DNA from: a virus | Lineage: Duplodnaviria; Caudoviricetes | Length of the DNA: 37,009 bases | Reading direction: 5' to 3' (one strand) | Virus record (IMG/VR): IMGVR_UViG_3300031965_000089 | Location: 1-37,009 of that record | Program-made: the position numbers and the translations under genes | Part shown: piece by piece, positions 5,601 to 21,993 of the stretch | Layout: each line of letters begins with the position of its first letter | How positions within the stretch are numbered: position 1 is the stretch's first letter | The notes under the pieces: model-generated | The model's input: only the letters and a program-made list of their open reading frames with translations | Told to the model about the DNA's origin: nothing | The model's database searches: none

Positions 5601-6036
5601 GGCTCACCCGCGAGCGCGAGGCGGGGCCGATCCCGAGCTCGGCCGCCGCCGCCATCCACAGTTTCATCGCGTTCTTCGCGATCGCCACATTCGGATTCTG
5701 CATCGGGACGCCGGACTGCGGCGCCTTCACCATGGCGCCCACGGCCAGCACATGCTCGATGGCCGCCGCCCAAATCCCATAATTGACGACGAACGCTTCC
5801 AGGACCGCGCGATCGATCCGCGTCAGCACGCCCAGATCGACCAACTCGCCCACCGTGCGGTCCCATTCGCCACGCGCGAGCTGCGCCGCGCGCGTCGCCG
5901 GGAGCTTGAGGGCCGGCGGCAATTCCGGCCGTTCGGCCGCCGGAGTCGGCTCGGCCGCATTGAGCCGGCGCTTGCCCGGATTGCCGGCGATCAGCTTGAG
6001 CCGCGTCGGCAAGGGCGGCGGGCCGCGCCTGGCCAT
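5557..6036 (-). CDS. terS: Terminase small subunit (P27 family)
   Basis: RGPPPLPTRLKLIAGNPGKRRLN N-terminus, QNPNVAI and ELGIGPASRSRV. Confidence 0.93.
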   Translation of the reverse strand: MARRGPPPLPTRLKLIAGNPGKRRLNAAEPTPAAERPELPPALKLPATRAAQLARGEWDRTVGELVDLGVLTRIDRAVLEAFVVNYGIWAAAIEHVLAVGAMVKAPQSGVPMQNPNVAIAKNAMKLWMAAAAELGIGPASRSRVSRVEPSKEDDEDLLG

Positions 6037-6304
6037 CAGCGGCTCGCCTCGGCCGAGCCGGCGGGGCGGCCGCCGGCGACGCCCTCACAACCGGCGCCGG
6101 CGCCCGCCCATGCGCACGCCGGCCGCCCGCCCCTTCCCCACCAGCCGCTCGCCCGCCGCGCACCACGGGCCGCGCCCGCCGGGCCGCGGGGCCATTCCGG
6201 GCGGGAGCCTTCCCGCCAACCGCCCGCGGCCTTTCCCGCGCCAGGCCGGAAAAGCTTTTTCCCAGCGCGACTTATAAGCCATTGATCGGCCGACATTTTC
6301 ACCC

Positions 6305-6334
6305 TTGCGCGCGGGAAATTTCCCGTGCTATCAT
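6305..6334 (+). promoter_or_regulatory. Predicted sigma70 promoter of the ribozyme operon, with an operator between -35 and -10
   Basis: TTGCGC (6305) N18 TATCAT (6329) with an extended -10 TG. The palindrome CGGGAAATTTCCCG lies at 6312-6325. Confidence 0.7.
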
Positions 6335-6404
6335 CCCCTTTGGCGCTGGGAAATTCCAGCGCCCCACCGCGCGGCGAGGCACGACCGCTCGGGGCAACAA
6401 GCCG

Positions 6405-6423
6405 GCTCTTTGACATCGTGAAG
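6405..6423 (+). promoter_or_regulatory. boxA-like antitermination site 1
   Basis: GCTCTTTGACATCGTGAAG resembles rrn/nut boxA (GCTCTTTAACA). 16 of 18 nt are repeated at 6620-6637. Confidence 0.55.
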
Positions 6424-6619
6424 CGCGCGGGGCCAGGCCTCGCCCTCATCCGCCGGCCGGCGCCTCGCCGGCTAGGCGGGCGGCGGCGAGTGCCGGCACG
6501 AAACCCGCACGCGCGCCCAGGCGGGCGCCCCTGGCGCCCGGCCGGCCAACATCCGCTCAAGAACGACCTGGCCGCCGCCACCGCCCCCGCCCGGAACGGC
6601 GATCAACAAAACGCCGCCC

Positions 6620-6637
6620 CTCTTTCCCATCGTGAAG
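6620..6637 (+). promoter_or_regulatory. boxA-like site 2 (direct repeat of site 1)
   Basis: CTCTTTCCCATCGTGAAG versus CTCTTTGACATCGTGAAG. Confidence 0.4.
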
Positions 6638-6720
6638 AGCAACTCCTGTGCAGTGCAGTTTGTGCGCTGCCGGACCGGCCTGCCCCTTCTTGTCTCCGAC
6701 AAGGCGGGCGGGCCGGCACG

Positions 6721-6788
6721 GTCGCCTGAGGAGGCCAGGGTGACGCCTGGCCGAAACCGGCGCTTCGGCGTCGGTCGCGGCAAACGTC
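6721..6788 (+). ncRNA. Type I hammerhead ribozyme 1 (GUC, predicted cut after 6776)
   Basis: GTCGC-CTGAGGA-GGCCAGG gtgacg CCTGGCC-GAAA-CCGGCGC ttcg GCGTCGG-TC-GCGGC. Loop II GACG pairs with 3' CGTC. Confidence 0.9.
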
Positions 6789-6818
6789 GGCCGCAGACTG
6801 CACATGAAGGAGAGACCG

Positions 6819-7019
6819 ATGAACAACACGACCATTCGCGTCGAGAAGGGCGAGCTCGTGATCCGCTGCAAGCTGAACGGCGCCAAGCCCGACAGCTTCC
6901 CGCTGAGCTCGACGGGCAAGAGCCGGCTGGTCGCTTCGACCACCGGCGCCGTGCCGATCGAGTTCCCGAGCCTGCCTGGCCTGAAGGTCGCGCTCAACGT
7001 CACGATCCCGGCGCGGTGA
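6819..7019 (+). CDS. Small hypothetical phage protein (SSTGKSRLVASTTG motif)
   Basis: AAGGAGAG RBS right after ribozyme 1; 66 aa with coding-like composition. Confidence 0.85.
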   Translation: MNNTTIRVEKGELVIRCKLNGAKPDSFPLSSTGKSRLVASTTGAVPIEFPSLPGLKVALNVTIPAR

Positions 7020-7027
7020 GGGCCAAG

Positions 7028-7249
7028 ATGGTCGAGCGATACAAGGGCGATCCCTATTGGATGATGACCAAGTATCCCGGCGCCTGCTCGAGCTGTGGCG
7101 AGAAGATCTCGCGCGGCAGCCGGGCCTTCTACTTTCCCAAAGGTCGGACGCTTCTGGGCGAGGCCTGCGGCTGCGGCGAGGTCGCGGCCCAGCGCTTCGC
7201 CGCGGAAGCGGCCGACGAAGCCGCCTACAACCAAGGCTACGGCGTCTAG
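7028..7249 (+). CDS. Small Cys-containing, probably Zn-binding hypothetical protein
   Basis: GAGGG RBS; MVERYKGDPYWMMTKYPGACSSCGEKI...ACGCG. The stop codon lies directly before ribozyme 2. Confidence 0.8.
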   Translation: MVERYKGDPYWMMTKYPGACSSCGEKISRGSRAFYFPKGRTLLGEACGCGEVAAQRFAAEAADEAAYNQGYGV

Positions 7250-7251
7250 CT

Positions 7252-7327
7252 CCCGCCTGACGAGGCCGGTTGACCACCGGCCGAAACCGCGCCGCCGGCT
7301 AGAGCCGGCGGCCGGTCGCGGGAAGTC
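7252..7327 (+). ncRNA. Type I hammerhead ribozyme 2 (GUC, cut after 7317)
   Basis: CCCGC-CTGACGA-GGCCGGT tgacc ACCGGCC-GAAA-CCG...CGG-TC-GCGGG aaGTC. Confidence 0.92.
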
Positions 7328-7357
7328 CCCCGCATACTGCACAGAAGGAGAGACCAA

Positions 7358-8437
7358 ATGAGCGAACCCGAAGCCATCGGGACTCCGGAGTCCGTCATCG
7401 TCCCCGCCGGTTATCTGCTGGCGGCCCAGATGCTGACGAACAAGAAAGAGGCCGGTTATCGGCGCTGCGTCTACCTGCACGCCGACCCGGACCCGCACCG
7501 GATGCGGATCGCCGCCACGGATGGCTCGCGCCTCTTCGTCGGCCGCTATGCGGTCGCCGGCGAGCGGCCATCCTGGGCACAGGCCGATCACGGCCTGTTG
7601 CTCGACGGCGAGCTCCTCAAATCCCGTGTCTCGCTGCTCGCCCGCGAGGGCGATCAGCATTTGGTCGTGAGCTTCGCCGCGGGCCTCGCCCGGGCGACGC
7701 TCGCCGACCGGAACGGGACGGCGACATTCAGCTTCAAGGCCGAGGAAGGGGTCTTCCCCGACTACGACGCGCTGCTGGATGTCGACAGCTTCGCCGCAAG
7801 CGAGCCCTTGTCCGGCCTGACGATCAACGGCGCTTTCCTCAAGGAAATCGCCGCCATCGCCCAGGTCCTCGAAGTCTCGGCGATCGACAAGCGGCCGCCG
7901 GCGATCCGCCAATACACGGGCGGGTCGAAGCACGCTCCGGTCCTGTTCGATTTTCCGAACTGGCCCGGCGTCGTGCTGATGCAGCTGCCGCAGCGCTCCG
8001 AGACCATTTCCTCCGAGACCGTGCGCCTGCTCGCTCCGGCGATGCAGCGCACGGTGGCCGCGCTCAAGGCGCATCAGACGCGCAACGAGGAATGGGCCAG
8101 GAAGGCCAAGGGCGAGGAACGCAAGGCCTACCAGGCCAAGGCCACCGAGTTCGCCAGCCGCATCGAGGAGCTGGCGAAGAGCCTGGCGGTCGCGATCGAG
8201 CACAAGCCGGCCGAGCCGCCGGCCGAGCCGAGCATGACCGAGGCCGCGCCCGAGGCCATCGCCGAGCCGACGCCGGCGACGCGCCTGGGCGACGCGGTGA
8301 CGGACAGGCAGCCGAGGGCCAACCGGCGTCTCAAGCGCCGCAAGGGCAACGGCAAGGCCAAAGCGAATGGCCGCGGCTCTAGGACCAAGCGCCGCGAGCG
8401 CCCGGCGCCGGCGGAAGTCGCCGCCGCCGCCGAGTAA
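7358..8437 (+). CDS. Truncated DNA polymerase III beta-clamp-like protein with a charged, low-complexity tail
   Basis: RIAATDGSRL, GVFPDYDALL, INGAFLKEI and VVLMQL parallel the DnaN motifs VATDGHRL, GKFPDY, FNxxYL and VVMPM. Confidence 0.65.
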   Translation: MSEPEAIGTPESVIVPAGYLLAAQMLTNKKEAGYRRCVYLHADPDPHRMRIAATDGSRLFVGRYAVAGERPSWAQADHGLLLDGELLKSRVSLLAREGDQHLVVSFAAGLARATLADRNGTATFSFKAEEGVFPDYDALLDVDSFAASEPLSGLTINGAFLKEIAAIAQVLEVSAIDKRPPAIRQYTGGSKHAPVLFDFPNWPGVVLMQLPQRSETISSETVRLLAPAMQRTVAALKAHQTRNEEWARKAKGEERKAYQAKATEFASRIEELAKSLAVAIEHKPAEPPAEPSMTEAAPEAIAEPTPATRLGDAVTDRQPRANRRLKRRKGNGKAKANGRGSRTKRRERPAPAEVAAAAE

Positions 8438-8512
8438 CCCGCCTGACGAGGCCGGACGACCACCGGCCGAAAAGAAGGGCGCCGCGAGGGCGCCCTTCTT
8501 CGCGGGAAGTCG
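8438..8512 (+). ncRNA. Type I hammerhead ribozyme 3 (UUC, cut after 8501)
   Basis: CCCGC-CTGACGA-GGCCGG acgacca CCGGCC-GAAA-AGAAGGGCGCC gcgag GGCGCCCTTCT-TC-GCGGG aaGTCG. Confidence 0.92.
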
Positions 8513-8542
8513 CCCGCAAACTGCACAACCAGGGAGACGAGG

Positions 8543-8737
8543 ATGACCACCAAGATTATGAGCCGGGCCGATCTCGAGCTGATCGGCGCGGCCCTCAAGA
8601 CTCTGGCCGACAACGGCGTCGTGCGCGGCGATCCCGACGCGCCGGGGCGCGCCGCACGCCTCAAGCTCGAATTCGATCTCGCGCTCAAGGCCTCGGCCCG
8701 CGCGCCGAGCCAGGCCTTCCGCATCGTCAAGGTGTGA
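8543..8737 (+). CDS. Hypothetical protein
   Basis: GGGAGACGAGG RBS after ribozyme 3; 64 aa. Confidence 0.75.
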   Translation: MTTKIMSRADLELIGAALKTLADNGVVRGDPDAPGRAARLKLEFDLALKASARAPSQAFRIVKV

Positions 8738-8740
8738 GGC

Positions 8741-8986
8741 ATGGCCTACTTCATCGCCCTGCCCTGCGCCGGCTGCGGCGTCATCTTCACGGCCAACCCG
8801 CACCTGGTGCCGGTCGCGGTGGTCAATGGCCACCGCGAGGGCATCTGCCAGAGCTGCGTCGCGCGGGTGAACCCGCTCCGCAAGGAGAAGGGTTTGCCCG
8901 AGATCGTCGTCGCCCCCGGCGCCTATGAAGGCGTGGCCGAGCCTACGGACATTGACTGCAACGAACCGCCTGACGAGGCCGGGTGA
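8741..8986 (+). CDS. Small Zn-finger-like protein (CxxC...CxxC)
   Basis: CAGCG and CQSC motifs; GAGG RBS. The 3' end runs into ribozyme 4. Confidence 0.8.
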   Translation: MAYFIALPCAGCGVIFTANPHLVPVAVVNGHREGICQSCVARVNPLRKEKGLPEIVVAPGAYEGVAEPTDIDCNEPPDEAG

Positions 8987-9046
8987 TCCGCCGGCCGAAA
9001 CGGGACGGGCCGCCCCACCAGGGCGGCCCGCCGTCGCGGAATGATC
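8966..9046 (+). ncRNA. Type I hammerhead ribozyme 4 (GUC, cut after 9035)
   Basis: CCGC-CTGACGA-GGCCGG gtgatccg CCGGCC-GAAA-CGG...CCG-TC-GCGG aatGATC. Confidence 0.9.
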
Positions 9047-9068
9047 CGCAAACTGCACAGAGGAGAGC

Positions 9069-9500
9069 ATGATGCACACCGAGGGTGAAGTCAACCTCGC
9101 CGAAGACCAGGCCTTCTGGGGCCCGATCATCTCCAGCTACAGCCGGGCGCAGGCGCTCGAGGACGGCGTGCTGGTCGCTGTGCCGCAGACGATGGCCGAG
9201 GAAGCCGGATTCAGGCTGCCGGTCACCCTGACCGCCAACGCCTGGGCGGCCTGCGTGGCGTTGCCGCCGGAAGGCGATCGCCACGGCCAGGACGAGGACG
9301 GGCGTCTGTGGGACGTGCTCTGGCTCGCCGGCTTCACGGCACGCCAGCGCCGGCACCGCGACCAGAGCCGCGCCAATTTCAGCGTCTCGGTCTACGACGT
9401 CGAACGCGAGCAGGCGATCGTCACCGAACTGGTCGTCGTCGCCGGTCCCGGCGACGAGGGCGAGCCGGTCATCACCATCATGCGTCCGAACGAAGATTGA
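9069..9500 (+). CDS. DUF6573-like mobile-element protein
   Basis: SYSRAQALEDGVLV, QDEDGRLWDVLW and GPGDEGEPVITIMRPNED are recognisable family motifs; GAGGAGAG RBS. Confidence 0.75.
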   Translation: MMHTEGEVNLAEDQAFWGPIISSYSRAQALEDGVLVAVPQTMAEEAGFRLPVTLTANAWAACVALPPEGDRHGQDEDGRLWDVLWLAGFTARQRRHRDQSRANFSVSVYDVEREQAIVTELVVVAGPGDEGEPVITIMRPNED

Positions 9501-9501
9501 T

Positions 9502-9568
9502 CCCGCCTGACGAGGCCAGGTGACCCCTGGCCGAAACCGGGGCACACTCGCCCCGGTAGCGGGAAGTC
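9502..9568 (+). ncRNA. Type I hammerhead ribozyme 5 (GUA, cut after 9558)
   Basis: CCCGC-CTGACGA-GGCCAGG tgacc CCTGGCC-GAAA-CCGGGGC acactc GCCCCGG-TA-GCGGG aaGTC. Confidence 0.92.
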
Positions 9569-9631
9569 CCGCAACTGCACACCGCGCTGCACGGATTGCA
9601 GCTCATCAAATGCGAAGTCGCAGGAGAGAAC

Positions 9632-9937
9632 ATGGCACGCTACCACATGGACGATGGGACCGTCGTCGACACCAAGAACGCTACCGAAAGCTGGGAGGAG
9701 GAAACCCGCTGGGATGGGAACAACAACGTCAGCGTCGCGACGGGAACCCAATGGGACCATGAGAAGCTGCATCGAAGCCGGAAGGGCCGCTACTGGATCG
9801 AGCAGTGGTCGCAGTGGCAGGGCCGGCTGCCATCAGCGCGCTGGGTAAGCCATCAGATAGCCGCTGCCTGGCTGTTGGCGAACGAGCATGAGATTCCGGC
9901 CGATCTCGTAGACGCGGCTGCCGAGGTCGCCGAATGA
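9632..9937 (+). CDS. Hypothetical protein (Trp-rich, acidic)
   Basis: AGGAGAG RBS; MARYHMDDG...HEKLHRSRKGRYW...WSQWQG. Confidence 0.85.
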   Translation: MARYHMDDGTVVDTKNATESWEEETRWDGNNNVSVATGTQWDHEKLHRSRKGRYWIEQWSQWQGRLPSARWVSHQIAAAWLLANEHEIPADLVDAAAEVAE

Positions 9938-9942
9938 ACAAA

Positions 9943-10021
9943 TCCGCCTGACGAGGCCAGGTGACGCCTGGCCGAAACGAAGGGGCGCCCCATTCGGGCG
10001 CCCTTTTCGTCGCGGGAAGTC
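9943..10021 (+). ncRNA. Type I hammerhead ribozyme 6 (GUC, cut after 10011)
   Basis: TCCGC-CTGACGA-GGCCAGG tgacg CCTGGCC-GAAA-CGAAGGGGCGCCC cattc GGGCGCCCTTTTCG-TC-GCGGG aaGTC. Confidence 0.92.
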
Positions 10022-10047
10022 CCGCAGACTGCACAAGGGGGCCAAGC

Positions 10048-10962
10048 ATGACAGTGTTGAAGACCCATATCAGTTGGACGGACTCGACGTGGAATCCGAC
10101 CGTCGGCTGCACGAAGGTCTCGGCCGGCTGCGACAATTGCTACGCCGAGGCCATCGTCCGCCGGCAGGGTCTCGATTTCGCGACGGTCCGCACCTTTCCC
10201 GCCCGCCTCGCCACCGGCCTGGGCTTCGGCCCGGTCGCCGGCGAGGATGGGCGGCCGCGACCTCGCCTCGTCTTCGTCAACTCGATGAGCGACTTGTTTC
10301 ACGAGCAGATCGGCGAAGGCTTCCGCGGCGAGATTTTCGACACCATCGACCACAACAGCCGGACCATCTTCCAGGTCCTGACCAAGCGGCCGATGACCAT
10401 GGCGCGGGTGATCGAGCAGAGATACGCCGCGGCCGGAGTGCCGCGTCATCTTTGGCTCGGCGTCTCGGCCGAGGACAACCGGGTCAAGGGCCGCCTCGAC
10501 CAGCTCCGGCGCTTGAAGGAGCGGGTCGGGAATTTCACGGCCTTCGTCTCGGTCGAGCCGCTCATCGGCCCGGTCGATCGCCACGACTACACCGGCCTCG
10601 ACTGGGTGCTGATCGGTGGCGAGTCGATCCAGATGGGGCGCTGGCGCAAGATGGACATCGACTGGGCCCGACAGGCCCGCGACCAGGCGCGGGCCGCCGG
10701 CGCCGCCATCTGGTTCAAGCAGTTCGGCATGTGGCAGAACAACCCGCTCTACCGCCAGGCGCCGGCCGGTCGCCATTGGGAGAAGGTTCGCTGGTGCATC
10801 GCGAATGGCGAATGCCAGGCCCGGCTCGTGACCGATTGCACGACCGGCAAGGTCAGGATCGAAGGAGAGAAGGGCGGGGCGACGCTCGACGACGAGGTCC
10901 TGCACGAGCTCCCACCCGCCTATCATGCGCTGCGCCAGGAGTTGCTCCGCACGATGCTTTGA
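10048..10962 (+). CDS. Phage Gp37/Gp68 (DUF5131) three-Cys radical-SAM-like protein
   Basis: ISWTDSTWNPTVGCTKVSAGCDNCYA, FVNSMSDLFH, QVLTKR, SVEPL, WVLIGGES and FKQFG. Confidence 0.93.
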   Translation: MTVLKTHISWTDSTWNPTVGCTKVSAGCDNCYAEAIVRRQGLDFATVRTFPARLATGLGFGPVAGEDGRPRPRLVFVNSMSDLFHEQIGEGFRGEIFDTIDHNSRTIFQVLTKRPMTMARVIEQRYAAAGVPRHLWLGVSAEDNRVKGRLDQLRRLKERVGNFTAFVSVEPLIGPVDRHDYTGLDWVLIGGESIQMGRWRKMDIDWARQARDQARAAGAAIWFKQFGMWQNNPLYRQAPAGRHWEKVRWCIANGECQARLVTDCTTGKVRIEGEKGGATLDDEVLHELPPAYHALRQELLRTML

Positions 10963-10992
10963 CATATCTCGCGCTCGAGCACTGAGCGGAAC

Positions 10993-11643
10993 TCAAGCCC
11001 GCCGGCCTCCCGCCGGCGGGCTCTTCTTTTCACCGACGAAGACCAGGCCGAGATAGCGCACCGCGGCGCCGGTCTTGCCCTTGGCCTCCCAGCGATCCGC
11101 CAGCCGACAGCACATGGCCATGGCCAGGCGCCGCAATGCCCGCCCGATGATTTCGCCATGCAAGGCGGCGCCGCCGGAGGGCGTGCCTTCGAGGCCGGCG
11201 ATCCACAGCAGCGCACGCGGATAGCCGCCCATCTTCAGCTTGAGACCCGAGCCTTCGGTCAGCACCAGGCCGACCCTTTCGCCCGGCGCCACCAGCCGAC
11301 GGCTGGCGACGATCCACGCCTGCTCCCACGGCGAACCATGGGCGTCGAGGTCGAATATCGAATAGGGCTGCAAGTCGATCGCCCGCAGCACGCGGCGATT
11401 GTCAGCGACAAAGGCCAAGCGGTCGTCGCGGCTCCATAGCAGGTCGCAGCCGCAATAGCCCGGCGCCTCGCGCCAGACGCGGCGATACATGACCCCGGCG
11501 CCGGCGAAGGCGTCGAACACCTGGCCCCCGACCGCCTGGAGGACGAGCCGCCGGACCGCGACCTTTGCCTCGTGGTGTTCGGCTGCATTGTGCACCTTGG
11601 CCGTCTTGCGGATGGCGGTGCTAAATCGACTGCGTGGTGCCAA
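10993..11643 (-). CDS. SAM-dependent methyltransferase-fold protein (start uncertain)
   Basis: VFDAFAGAGVM (motif I) and FDLDAHGSPW. Confidence 0.7.
   Translation of the reverse strand: MAPRSRFSTAIRKTAKVHNAAEHHEAKVAVRRLVLQAVGGQVFDAFAGAGVMYRRVWREAPGYCGCDLLWSRDDRLAFVADNRRVLRAIDLQPYSIFDLDAHGSPWEQAWIVASRRLVAPGERVGLVLTEGSGLKLKMGGYPRALLWIAGLEGTPSGGAALHGEIIGRALRRLAMAMCCRLADRWEAKGKTGAAVRYLGLVFVGEKKSPPAGGRRA
10996..11030 (+). terminator. Rho-independent terminator closing the ribozyme operon
   Basis: AGCCCGCCGGC ctccc GCCGGCGGGCT stem followed by CTTCTTTT. Confidence 0.75.
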
Positions 11644-14332: not shown

Positions 14333-14378
14333 CGCCGCGCGCGATCAGCCGCCACTCCAACCCTGATCGCGCGCGGCG
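14333..14378. repeat. 16-bp intergenic hairpin whose 14-nt loop is identical to the loop at 19659-19672
   Basis: CGCCGCGCGCGATCAG ccgccactccaacc CTGATCGCGCGCGGCG. Confidence 0.85.
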
Positions 14379-18712: not shown

Positions 18713-18741
18713 ACCATACGGGAAATTTCCCGCAATTGCAA
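18713..18741 (-). promoter_or_regulatory. Lytic (cro) promoter with overlapping operator
   Basis: TTGCAA N17 TATGGT on the minus strand; operator CGGGAAATTTCCCG at 18719-18732; ATG only 6 nt after the -10. Confidence 0.8.
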
Positions 18742-18790: not shown

Positions 18791-19573
18791 ATGCGCGACC
18801 TCGCCGGCCGCATCGAGGAGGAGCGCCTGAAGCGCGGGCTGTCCGCCCGCGCCCTGGCCGACGCCGCCGGCCTGGGCGAAGGCGCGGTGCTCGACATCGT
18901 CAACCGGCGCTCGAAGGCCCCGCGCGTCGACACCGTATGGAAGATCGCCGACGCGCTCGGCGTCAGCATCGGCTTTCTCCTCGACGAGCCGGCCGCGCCG
19001 GCCGCGCAGGGCGACATCATCGAGGTGGTCGGCGCCATCGCCCTCGACGAATGGCAGGAGGACGCCGTTTGGCCGCCCGGCCGGCGCTACCACGTCGCGG
19101 CCACGCGCTCGCCCGCCCATCCCAAGGCCCGGCGCTTCGGCCTCATCGTCGGCGACGGACATTGCGACCTCTACTATCGCCCGGGATCGATCCTCCTTTG
19201 CCTGCCGCTCAAAGACGCCGGCCAATCGCTCAAGGAAGGCGACCGGGTCATCGTCCGCTTGCGCAAGAGCGGTCTGGTCATGTCGCTGTGCATGACCGCG
19301 GCGCCGACCGCGACCGGCGGCGTCGCGCTGCGGACGGCGGCGACCAACCCACGCCGGCGCTTCATGGCGGAGATCGAACGAAGCGGCCGCAATGCCCATC
19401 CGCGCGCGGGCGGGACGCCCGCTCTTGTCTCGGACAGAGTCGGCGGCGGCGCCGCCGTGGCCGGCCGCACCGGCTACCAGCTGGTCGGCGAGGGGCCGCG
19501 CCCGATCGCCTATCAGCCGCAGCCCGCCGACCAGGTGACGATCGACGCGCTGGTGGTCGGCCATGTCGAATAA
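18791..19573 (+). CDS. CI-like XRE-family HTH repressor
   Basis: RIEEERLKRGLSARALADAAGL...PRVDTVWKIADALGVS; C-terminal region loosely similar to S24 domains; divergent from cro. Confidence 0.88.
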   Translation: MRDLAGRIEEERLKRGLSARALADAAGLGEGAVLDIVNRRSKAPRVDTVWKIADALGVSIGFLLDEPAAPAAQGDIIEVVGAIALDEWQEDAVWPPGRRYHVAATRSPAHPKARRFGLIVGDGHCDLYYRPGSILLCLPLKDAGQSLKEGDRVIVRLRKSGLVMSLCMTAAPTATGGVALRTAATNPRRRFMAEIERSGRNAHPRAGGTPALVSDRVGGGAAVAGRTGYQLVGEGPRPIAYQPQPADQVTIDALVVGHVE

Positions 19574-19574
19574 A

Positions 19575-19624
19575 CGGGAAAATTCCCGCGATCCGCTTGA
19601 CGCGGGAAATTTCCCGTCTAGACT
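19575..19624 (+). promoter_or_regulatory. Promoter for the xis/int operon with two operators
   Basis: CGGGAAAATTCCCG (19575) and CGGGAAATTTCCCG (19603); TTGACG (19597) N16 TAGACT (19619). Confidence 0.78.
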
Positions 19625-19631
19625 CGCCGGC

Positions 19632-19723
19632 TATCGTGATCCGGGCGCGCGCCGCCAGCCGCCACTCCAACCCTGGCGGTGCGCGCCGCGAGCGGATCGG
19701 GTTGGCGGGCGGCGATCGGCGAG
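19632..19723 (+). ncRNA. Putative structured leader RNA / small RNA
   Basis: 15-bp stem (19644-58 with 19673-87) with loop CCGCCACTCCAACC; outer GATCCG/CGGATC helix; downstream GGGTTGGCGGGCGG is partly complementary to the loop. Confidence 0.5.
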
Positions 19724-21783: not shown

Positions 21784-21993
21784 TGCAAACGATTGCCCGG
21801 ACGTTCGCCCCGGCGGCTGCAAACGATTGGGCCAAGTCCTGGCTGGGGCGGCAGGATTCGAACCTGCGATCGCGGATCCAAAGTCCGGCGCCCATCGCCC
21901 GCAAGACCGCGCATTGGGCCGAATCGTTTGCAGCCCGTCAACCGGACAGAGGCGGAACGGGCCAGGACCGAACCGCGCCCAGTGCAAACGATT
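21784..21993. mobile_element. attP site: tRNA-Gln 3'-half core flanked by integrase arm-type repeats
   Basis: TGCAAACGATT at 21784, 21818 and 21983, and inverted at 21922, surrounding a tRNA fragment. Confidence 0.85.
21840..21892 (-). pseudogene. 3' portion of tRNA-Gln(TTG) (att core; not a complete tRNA)
   Basis: Minus strand reads CGGA cTTTGGa TCCG ... GCAGG TTCGAAT CCTGC CGCCCCAG CCA. No matching 5' acceptor strand or D-arm upstream. Confidence 0.8.

Follow-up and report, generated by a model that had tools for sequence, protein, structure and literature searches.

The window, by which we mean the whole 37-kb virus record analysed (37,009 nucleotides, 56% complete), carries genes for an integrase, a cI-like repressor, a replication initiator, a terminase, a portal and a tail, and comes from a temperate soil phage for which a terminase search indicated no host. 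A weak tRNA-like match (21844-21901, minus strand, E 0.25) lies directly after the integrase gene and is possibly an attachment-site remnant, and a 43-nt repeat occurs at 14336-14378 and 19646-19688, one copy just past the promoter that follows cI. Between terS and a ParB-like gene, and oriented opposite to these neighbours, lies an operon of eight ORFs on the plus strand (6819-10962), with predicted hammerhead ribozymes ahead of its genes except those at 7028 and 8741, which lack a separate cassette. Region 6000-11100 is matched without differences by one contig of run X1, which may be the source sample. The cassettes and the operon end are as follows:

6721..6821, + strand: cassette 1, type I hammerhead core at 6726, predicted cut after 6776; 5' hairpin, box 6797-6804, SD, ATG 6819
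7252..7360, + strand: cassette 2, hammerhead, predicted cut after 7317; box 7336-7343; ATG 7358, the product being sliding-clamp-like in its N-terminal part
8438..8545, + strand: cassette 3, hammerhead, predicted cut after 8501; box 8520-8527; ATG 8543
8966..9071, + strand: cassette 4, hammerhead, predicted cut after 9035; box 9052-9059; ATG 9069 (DUF6573)
9502..9634, + strand: cassette 5, hammerhead with GUA site, predicted cut after 9558; box 9574-9581; ATG 9632, 50 nt from the box
9944..10050, + strand: cassette 6, hammerhead, predicted cut after 10011; box 10028-10035; ATG 10048 (DUF5131)
10996..11031, + strand: terminator-like hairpin at the operon end

After each predicted cut the order is GCGG hairpin, box ACTGCACA, SD and start codon, and every sense box (plus-strand starts 6797, 7336, 8520, 9052, 9574 and 10028) begins 16-21 nt after the predicted cleavage site. 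All six cassettes hold a type I hammerhead core (CUGANGA plus GAAA, NUH site, three stems) and a 3-4 bp complementarity between loop II and the tail (a pseudoknot) whose letters co-vary (GACG, GAC, CGAC, GATC); Rfam models run on the window at E<=1 gave no match for the leader and did not report the hammerheads, and the minus strand holds no hammerhead. An initial annotation of this DNA had described six sense boxes and one exact inverted complement in the operon leader, and that description is borne out: ACTGCACA has seven matches in the window, six on the plus and one on the minus strand, where 0.28 are expected, and a count of seven was reached in 0 of 100 shuffles. In cassette 5, an extra hairpin with a second CTGCAC stands between box and SD (9574-9631), so the inverted copy may not cover the ribosome site of this cassette.

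In the protein encoded at 7358-8437, the N-terminal 215 aa look like a portion of a DNA polymerase III sliding clamp (Atlas score 0.95, TM about 0.74; PDB clamp E 0.0016) and a low-complexity tail comes after them; homologues of this protein occur in the ribozyme arrays of three other phages treated below (L421, L758 and L437); the 66-aa protein at 6819-7019 belongs to a family with 34 matches, also present in the L437 and L758 arrays and without a Pfam or PHROG name. A protein search with operon gene 3 gave no relative.

Upstream of the first cassette, the following control elements were found, together with a gene elsewhere in the window that bears on them:

6305..6334, + strand: predicted operon promoter (TTGCGC, 18 nt, TG-extended TATCAT), read from the sequence
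6313..6324, unstranded: palindromic operator GGGAAATTTCCC, in the promoter spacer
6406..6422, + strand: boxA-like motif CTCTTTGACATCGTGAA, copy 1
6620..6636, + strand: boxA-like motif, copy 2, 6 nt before the anti-site
18791..19573, + strand: cI-like repressor gene (PHROG repressor matches, E 3.6e-9), operator on both flanks

We infer a transcription start near 6341; a strict promoter scan did not list this promoter among its predictions. The palindrome recurs at 18720-18731 and 19604-19615, with variants at 6348-6358 and 19576-19587, so that one GGGAAATTTCCC site falls within the spacer of the operon promoter, one separates the cro-like from the cI-like gene, and one belongs to a second promoter-like site after cI. 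Because the predicted promoter overlaps an operator of the cI/cro switch, the ribozyme operon is probably a repressor-controlled early operon, with the cI-like repressor as the likely regulator of its promoter. The CTCTTTGACATCGTGAA motif, which we take to be a possible Nus boxA antitermination site, has two related copies in the L421 leader, one likewise just before the anti-site. Similar motifs recur in the ribozyme-operon leaders of L421, L051, L471 and L016; no rRNA-linked match was recognised in five draft alphaproteobacterial genomes, and no paper on the motif was found.

The leader itself is composed of the following parts, listed with the segment of cassette 1 that it is predicted to meet:

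6341..6776, + strand: structured leader of 436 nt, the predicted 5' product of hammerhead 1, ends inferred
6342-6363, + strand: leader 5' hairpin
6643..6669, + strand: anti-site, with anti-SD CTCCT at 6643-6647
6647-6654, + strand: register 1 of the anti-site, TGTGCAGT, the inverted ACTGCACA
6653-6664, + strand: register 2 of the anti-site, GTGCAGTTTGTG, overlapping register 1
6650-6670, + strand: self-hairpin of the anti-site, loop GTTTG
6670..6720, + strand: long GC-rich spacer hairpin between the anti-site and hammerhead 1
6788-6812, + strand: segment of cassette 1, predicted cis partner of the anti-site

The leader folds more stably than its shuffles (z = -4.07 against 100 shuffles), and ORFs can be read in it in a mechanical sense. 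The 20-mer quoted initially is present at 6643-6662 and reads CTCCTGTGCAGTGCAGTTTG, and its second stretch does match copies 3 and 4, with GTGCAGTTTG complementary to CAAACTGCAC of those cassettes. Register 2 could form 12 contiguous pairs with CGCA(A/G)ACTGCAC of cassettes 1, 3, 4 and 6, the A/G variation falling opposite a U where a G-U pair is possible. Over the 37-kb sense strand, no other site complements the six start regions as well as the anti-site at word sizes 5, 6 and 7, and the anti-site also ranks first by duplex energy within 8 kb. When the 436-nt leader was put through 20,000 dinucleotide shuffles, using motifs picked after being seen, TGTGCAGT arose 13 times, CTCC plus TGTGCAG 6 times and two GTGCAGT copies 0 times.

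Comparison with related arrays supports a connection between box and inverted copy. Relatives with ribozyme arrays were collected by hammerhead-pattern scans, and L437, L758 and L421 were thus picked up independently of the anti-site; counting the window, 18 groups have at least three ribozymes, and the 12 with at least three SD-bearing starts entered the tests. A CTGCAA(T)GGAG-type tag is found in L437 (20 tagged starts on the array strand of its contig), L758/L114 and L421, and their leaders hold (A/T)TGCAG-type anti-sites of the TTGCAG/ATGCAGAT type, namely CTCTATTTGCAGGATCTCC in L437, CTCATTGCAGGATCTCCACTTGCA in L758/L114 and TCTTCCATCACATGCAGATTCCCC in L421. In L454 the tag is an unrelated one, CACAC..AAGGGGGAACC, and the leader holds GGTTCCCTACCCTTTATGTGTGTG. 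Box/anti-box covariation across distant phages, proposed beforehand as a check, is therefore seen in L437, L758, L421 and L454.

With ribozyme-defined starts and 13-20 kb of sequence, the leader sites of L437, L758 and L421 rank 1, 1 and 2 at word size 7, and at word size 5 only that of L758 is in the top three; the L454 site, chosen by eye, ranks 3 at size 5 with ribozyme-defined starts and 1-2 with box-selected ones. With box-bearing starts, a set selected for the box, the own-set ranks at word size 6 are 1 for the window, 1 for L437, 2 for L758, 2 for L421 and 1 for L454. By comparison, the window's starts rank the L437, L758 and L421 sites 47, 449 and 645 at this word size, and the starts of these three rank the window's site 152, 1232 and 769; this specificity holds at sizes 6-7, and at size 5 the CTGCAA-group starts partly pick the window site. 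A duplex energy matrix, again with start sets selected for the box, gave the lowest value for the own start set in six of six rows. Other tests were negative: for 7 of the 11 relatives (two of which have little upstream DNA) no leader site came into the top three at any word size, the L045 site, also chosen by eye, ranks 11-36 and fails the rank test, plain duplex energy across 12 arrays places a leader site in the top four for the window only (1/12), and a longest-match scan with truncated start regions singles out the window alone.

All leader copies are inverted and carry anti-SD bases, and orientation is strict in five lineages, with the tag in sense at starts and inverted in the leader. 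The tag also stands at genes without a ribozyme and, in L421, at a gene that lies upstream of the leader, a distribution more in keeping with a reader that can diffuse. Pairwise, the stretches compared between lineages align over just 158-693 nt, and the lineages have three operon gene families in common, at 27-64% identity; with shared gene families but so little shared DNA, the modules are probably distant homologues and not independent inventions. A hairpin occupies the spacer position also in L758, L437, L454 and L045. Release of the leader by a ribozyme, which the initial annotation had invoked, does not generalise: four of six lineages (window, L758, L454 and L045) have a hammerhead core no more than 170 nt past the anti-site, with none in that range in L437 or L421.

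In the L758-type records variation is confined to 8 of 472 columns, which does not suffice for covariation; a leader-motif scan gave 13 matches, of which the L421 contig alone has cassettes; an anti-site scan gave 39 loci, made up of the L437 contig, eight near-identical L758-type records and others without arrays; and a search pattern, TGTGCAG..CCTGANGAG, was discarded as too loose. CTGCA cassettes also occur at metagenome loci L584 and L614-L616, on contigs without flanks, and in G407, whose record begins inside the array, the box is CTGCAC. A sample of 401 genomes from the class to which G002 belongs yielded no recognisable ribozyme array, as judged from the matching strings listed, and neither did cultured phages. 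L454 has a mixed array, with permuted (type II-like) hammerheads right after the anti-site and before its first type I hammerhead, and a long GGCT repeat tract ahead of its promoter. Five further arrays of 6-7 hammerheads (L033, L038, L032, L050 and L061) have released 5' ends without an SD and lay outside the SD-based test; in L061, the complement of the CAACCAACA tract of these arrays lies 2.5 kb upstream.

Folding predictions set bounds on how the anti-site could pair. Burial of the anti-box in structure had been named at the outset as a danger to the antisense idea, and it is partly what the folds give: most of the anti-box is paired in its own leader hairpin, while the GUUUG loop and, in the anti-SD, the UCC stay mostly unpaired. 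In two-strand folds, which cannot model loop-loop kissing, the predicted net binding to the six targets is -3 to -9 kcal/mol for a short leader piece and -7 to -11 for a long one, clearly better than box-shuffled controls for cassette 1 and, varying with the piece used, for some others, but no better for cassette 2, 3 or 5, again according to the piece; in the relatives the mean is -11 to -12, and shuffled starts give -7 to -8. Pairing is predicted to be strongest with cassette 1 (gene 1), in cis, where a helix of about 20 pairs (6643-6669 with 6788-6812) is the best local fold, and full-transcript folds with the helix enforced (-266.7) and without it (-267.0) lie within 0.3 kcal/mol. The initial proposal of one RNA co-regulating all cassettes thus gains from the covariation, but loses from a best partner in cis and modest net binding in trans. 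In equilibrium folds of five of the six cassettes, the GCGG hairpin competes with stem I.

The window and four other phages each match their own tag with their own inverted copy, and the leader is therefore likely to be an RNA off-switch for the tagged genes as a group. On balance we lean toward a reading, drawn from sequence and predicted folds, in which the leader anti-site acts as an antisense over tag and SD, on gene 1 in cis and then on the others in trans, as a delayed shut-off of translation. The sequence holds an operator in the promoter, six ribozyme-hairpin-box-SD cassettes, and one inverted box with anti-SD. On infection or induction the promoter would fire and the hammerheads would cut the transcript into units beginning with hairpin, box and SD, which would be translated initially, the anti-site being predicted to be self-folded at first (6650-6670). 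The cut at 6776 would leave a structured 436-nt RNA that may outlast the messages, and its open UCC and GUUUG loop could seed pairing with GGAG and CA(A/G)AC that would extend to 12-20 pairs and cover the ribosome site, yielding a self-limiting pulse of early proteins. The ribozyme would be one route to freeing the leader RNA and not an essential one. Taken together, the leader feature is real and is supported by covariation, and the proposed mechanism is likely.

The main rival, next to which the others are weaker, is a cis-only switch, in which the anti-site folds onto cassette 1 and gates gene 1, ribozyme 1 or read-through in an attenuator-like manner, the remaining boxes being homogenised copies or serving another reader. 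The long local helix and the near-equal full-transcript folds fit such a switch, as do pairing that reaches bases unique to cassette 1 (6788-6792), a nearest boxed start that is best or tied-best in the window, L454 and L437, and local cis pairing predicted in four of four relatives. We nonetheless judge it unlikely, since the second register of the anti-site exactly matches cassettes 3 and 4, the nearest start in L758 has a degenerate box and is the second weakest, the first gene after the site in L437 has no box, and as many as 20 starts retain the tag, which also occurs far from any ribozyme.

A less probable reading still makes the box a protein site, on RNA or DNA, with the inverted copy as operator or decoy and no RNA-RNA pairing. 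The TGCA cores are palindromic, and for the comparable start-associated sequence (SAS) of cluster K phages the sections of Pope et al. 2011 that treat it leave open whether the reader is protein or RNA (PMC3203893). However, orientation is strict in five lineages, the complement would be unreadable to an RNA-binding protein, the inverted copies carry anti-SD bases and wobble-compatible changes, and the phage's recognisable operator is a different palindrome. We find it harder again to credit that the leader RNA activates, with register 2 invading the 3' arm (CGC) of the cassette hairpin, freeing GCGG for stem I and licensing cleavage. Register 2 does pair with that arm, and the hairpin's competition with stem I gives such invasion something to relieve, but the same duplex covers the SD, the tag is found at ribozyme-free genes too, and the folds omit the pseudoknot that favours the ribozyme.

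Very improbable, in our view, is the alternative offered initially, that the anti-site is the box and ribosome-binding site of a minus-strand ORF (6472-6630): a GGAG does lie 12 nt before an ATG, and in L758 a minus-strand ATG lies 8 nt behind GGAG, but the ORF has no Pfam match and no homologue, the minus-strand ORFs of four lineages (10-115 aa) have no evident likeness, and the minus strand has no ribozyme. As little credence goes to a functionless chance match or decayed inverted cassette, which a GC-rich, repeat-rich operon and a motif chosen after the fact might invite, but against which stand the rarity among leader shuffles (13 of 20,000), the lineage-specific recurrence in distant phages and the lack of a minus-strand hammerhead.

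Several known systems resemble parts of this arrangement. The P1/P7 C4 RNA is an antisense element in the untranslated leader of the operon it regulates, freed by processing. The C4 and CI RNAs are made in the lysogen, where they confer immunity, and act by terminating transcription prematurely; they mature through host nucleases, with processing by RNase P. The account of P4 CI RNA in part of PMC4825925 has it processed from the untranslated leader and pairing with seqA and seqC, leading to termination. The window shares with C4/CI a putative antisense in the leader of the controlled operon, which would likewise be self-generated, and complementary sites in the same transcript, and differs in that processing would be by predicted hammerheads, not RNase P, and in that the targets are 6-20 ribosome-binding regions instead of two termination-control sites; Rfam gave no C4/CI family match at E<=1 in the window or at gathering score in L758, L745 and L769. 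As the promoter carries a repressor-type operator, a role of the leader element in lysogen immunity is unlikely, and the analogy first drawn with C4 and CI fits poorly in this respect. P22 sar, in turn, is an antisense RNA by which a phage keeps an early regulatory gene from being translated; its module is set among late genes, and it is an opposite-strand transcript with one target. Like sar (named in the relevant part of PMC5415839), the window's element would act against early gene translation from a module placed among late genes; unlike sar, it lies on the same strand and would have many targets.

Clustered hammerheads flanking prophage genes, of unexplained purpose, are described in part of Perreault et al. 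2011 (PMC3088659); like those in the window they have loop II pseudoknots and would cut a phage transcript into gene-sized units, but that part of the paper mentions no start tag or antisense leader (PMC3088659). Searches of the open-licence literature brought up neither ribozyme arrays with an antisense leader nor an early operon that is shut off by one antisense RNA of its own making with many targets; the arrangement would be a variant of self-processed phage antisense control.

A close parallel is the cluster K SAS. According to the SAS sections of Pope et al. 2011, which give the inverted copy no role, this 13-bp tag stands at 11-19 starts, and four K1 phages have one inverted copy of it (PMC3203893). 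In three K1-type phages whose last 14-16 kb we examined, a single inverted SAS is present (BarrelRoll L824:14709, SgtBeansprout L827:13659, Validus L825:15366), in an aligned conserved region after terminator- and promoter-like sequence; two of three folds place it, as CCUCCUAUCC, in the open loop of a long hairpin, and it is intergenic in two phages, whereas in Validus a hypothetical gene is annotated over it. Two of the five phages covered by part genomes, Unicorn (L823) and Keshu (L826), keep the region with a different loop and no inverted SAS within two mismatches. The inverted SAS region is accordingly offered as a candidate antisense RNA for SAS genes; PMC13596312 makes no mention of SAS or a small RNA.

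As with SAS, the window's tag is asymmetric, stands at the SD of many genes, has one orientation and has a single inverted copy away from starts, and the SAS genes, as treated in that part of the 2011 paper, are many non-structural genes (PMC3203893). Unlike the 13-bp mycobacteriophage consensus GGGATAGGAGCCC, the window's box is ACTGCACA plus a variable SD; sequence and host group differ, and no hammerheads are reported for SAS in the sections cited (PMC3203893). The extended SAS has 17-bp inverted repeats where the window's upstream element is a hammerhead, and the inverted SAS lies near the genome end after its own promoter-like stretch, whereas the window's lies in the operon leader.

More tentatively, and with real doubt, we propose that many phages may run a tag-and-antitag regulon, in which a private tag marks early-gene ribosome sites and a single antisense RNA silences them all. 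The window's hammerheads would give the tagged 5' ends a standard form and, from the same transcript, set the antisense RNA free, making a protein-free timer, and the cluster K SAS would be the same system. If true, this would give one answer to two questions, namely what purpose clustered hammerheads serve in cutting the early transcripts of phages (Perreault 2011) and what role start tags with one inverted copy have (Pope 2011), and synthetic operons would gain an RNA timer that is compact and portable. Since three K1-type phages hold a single inverted SAS in a conserved region, as a hairpin loop in two of three folds, and are cultured, the idea is directly testable in M. smegmatis.
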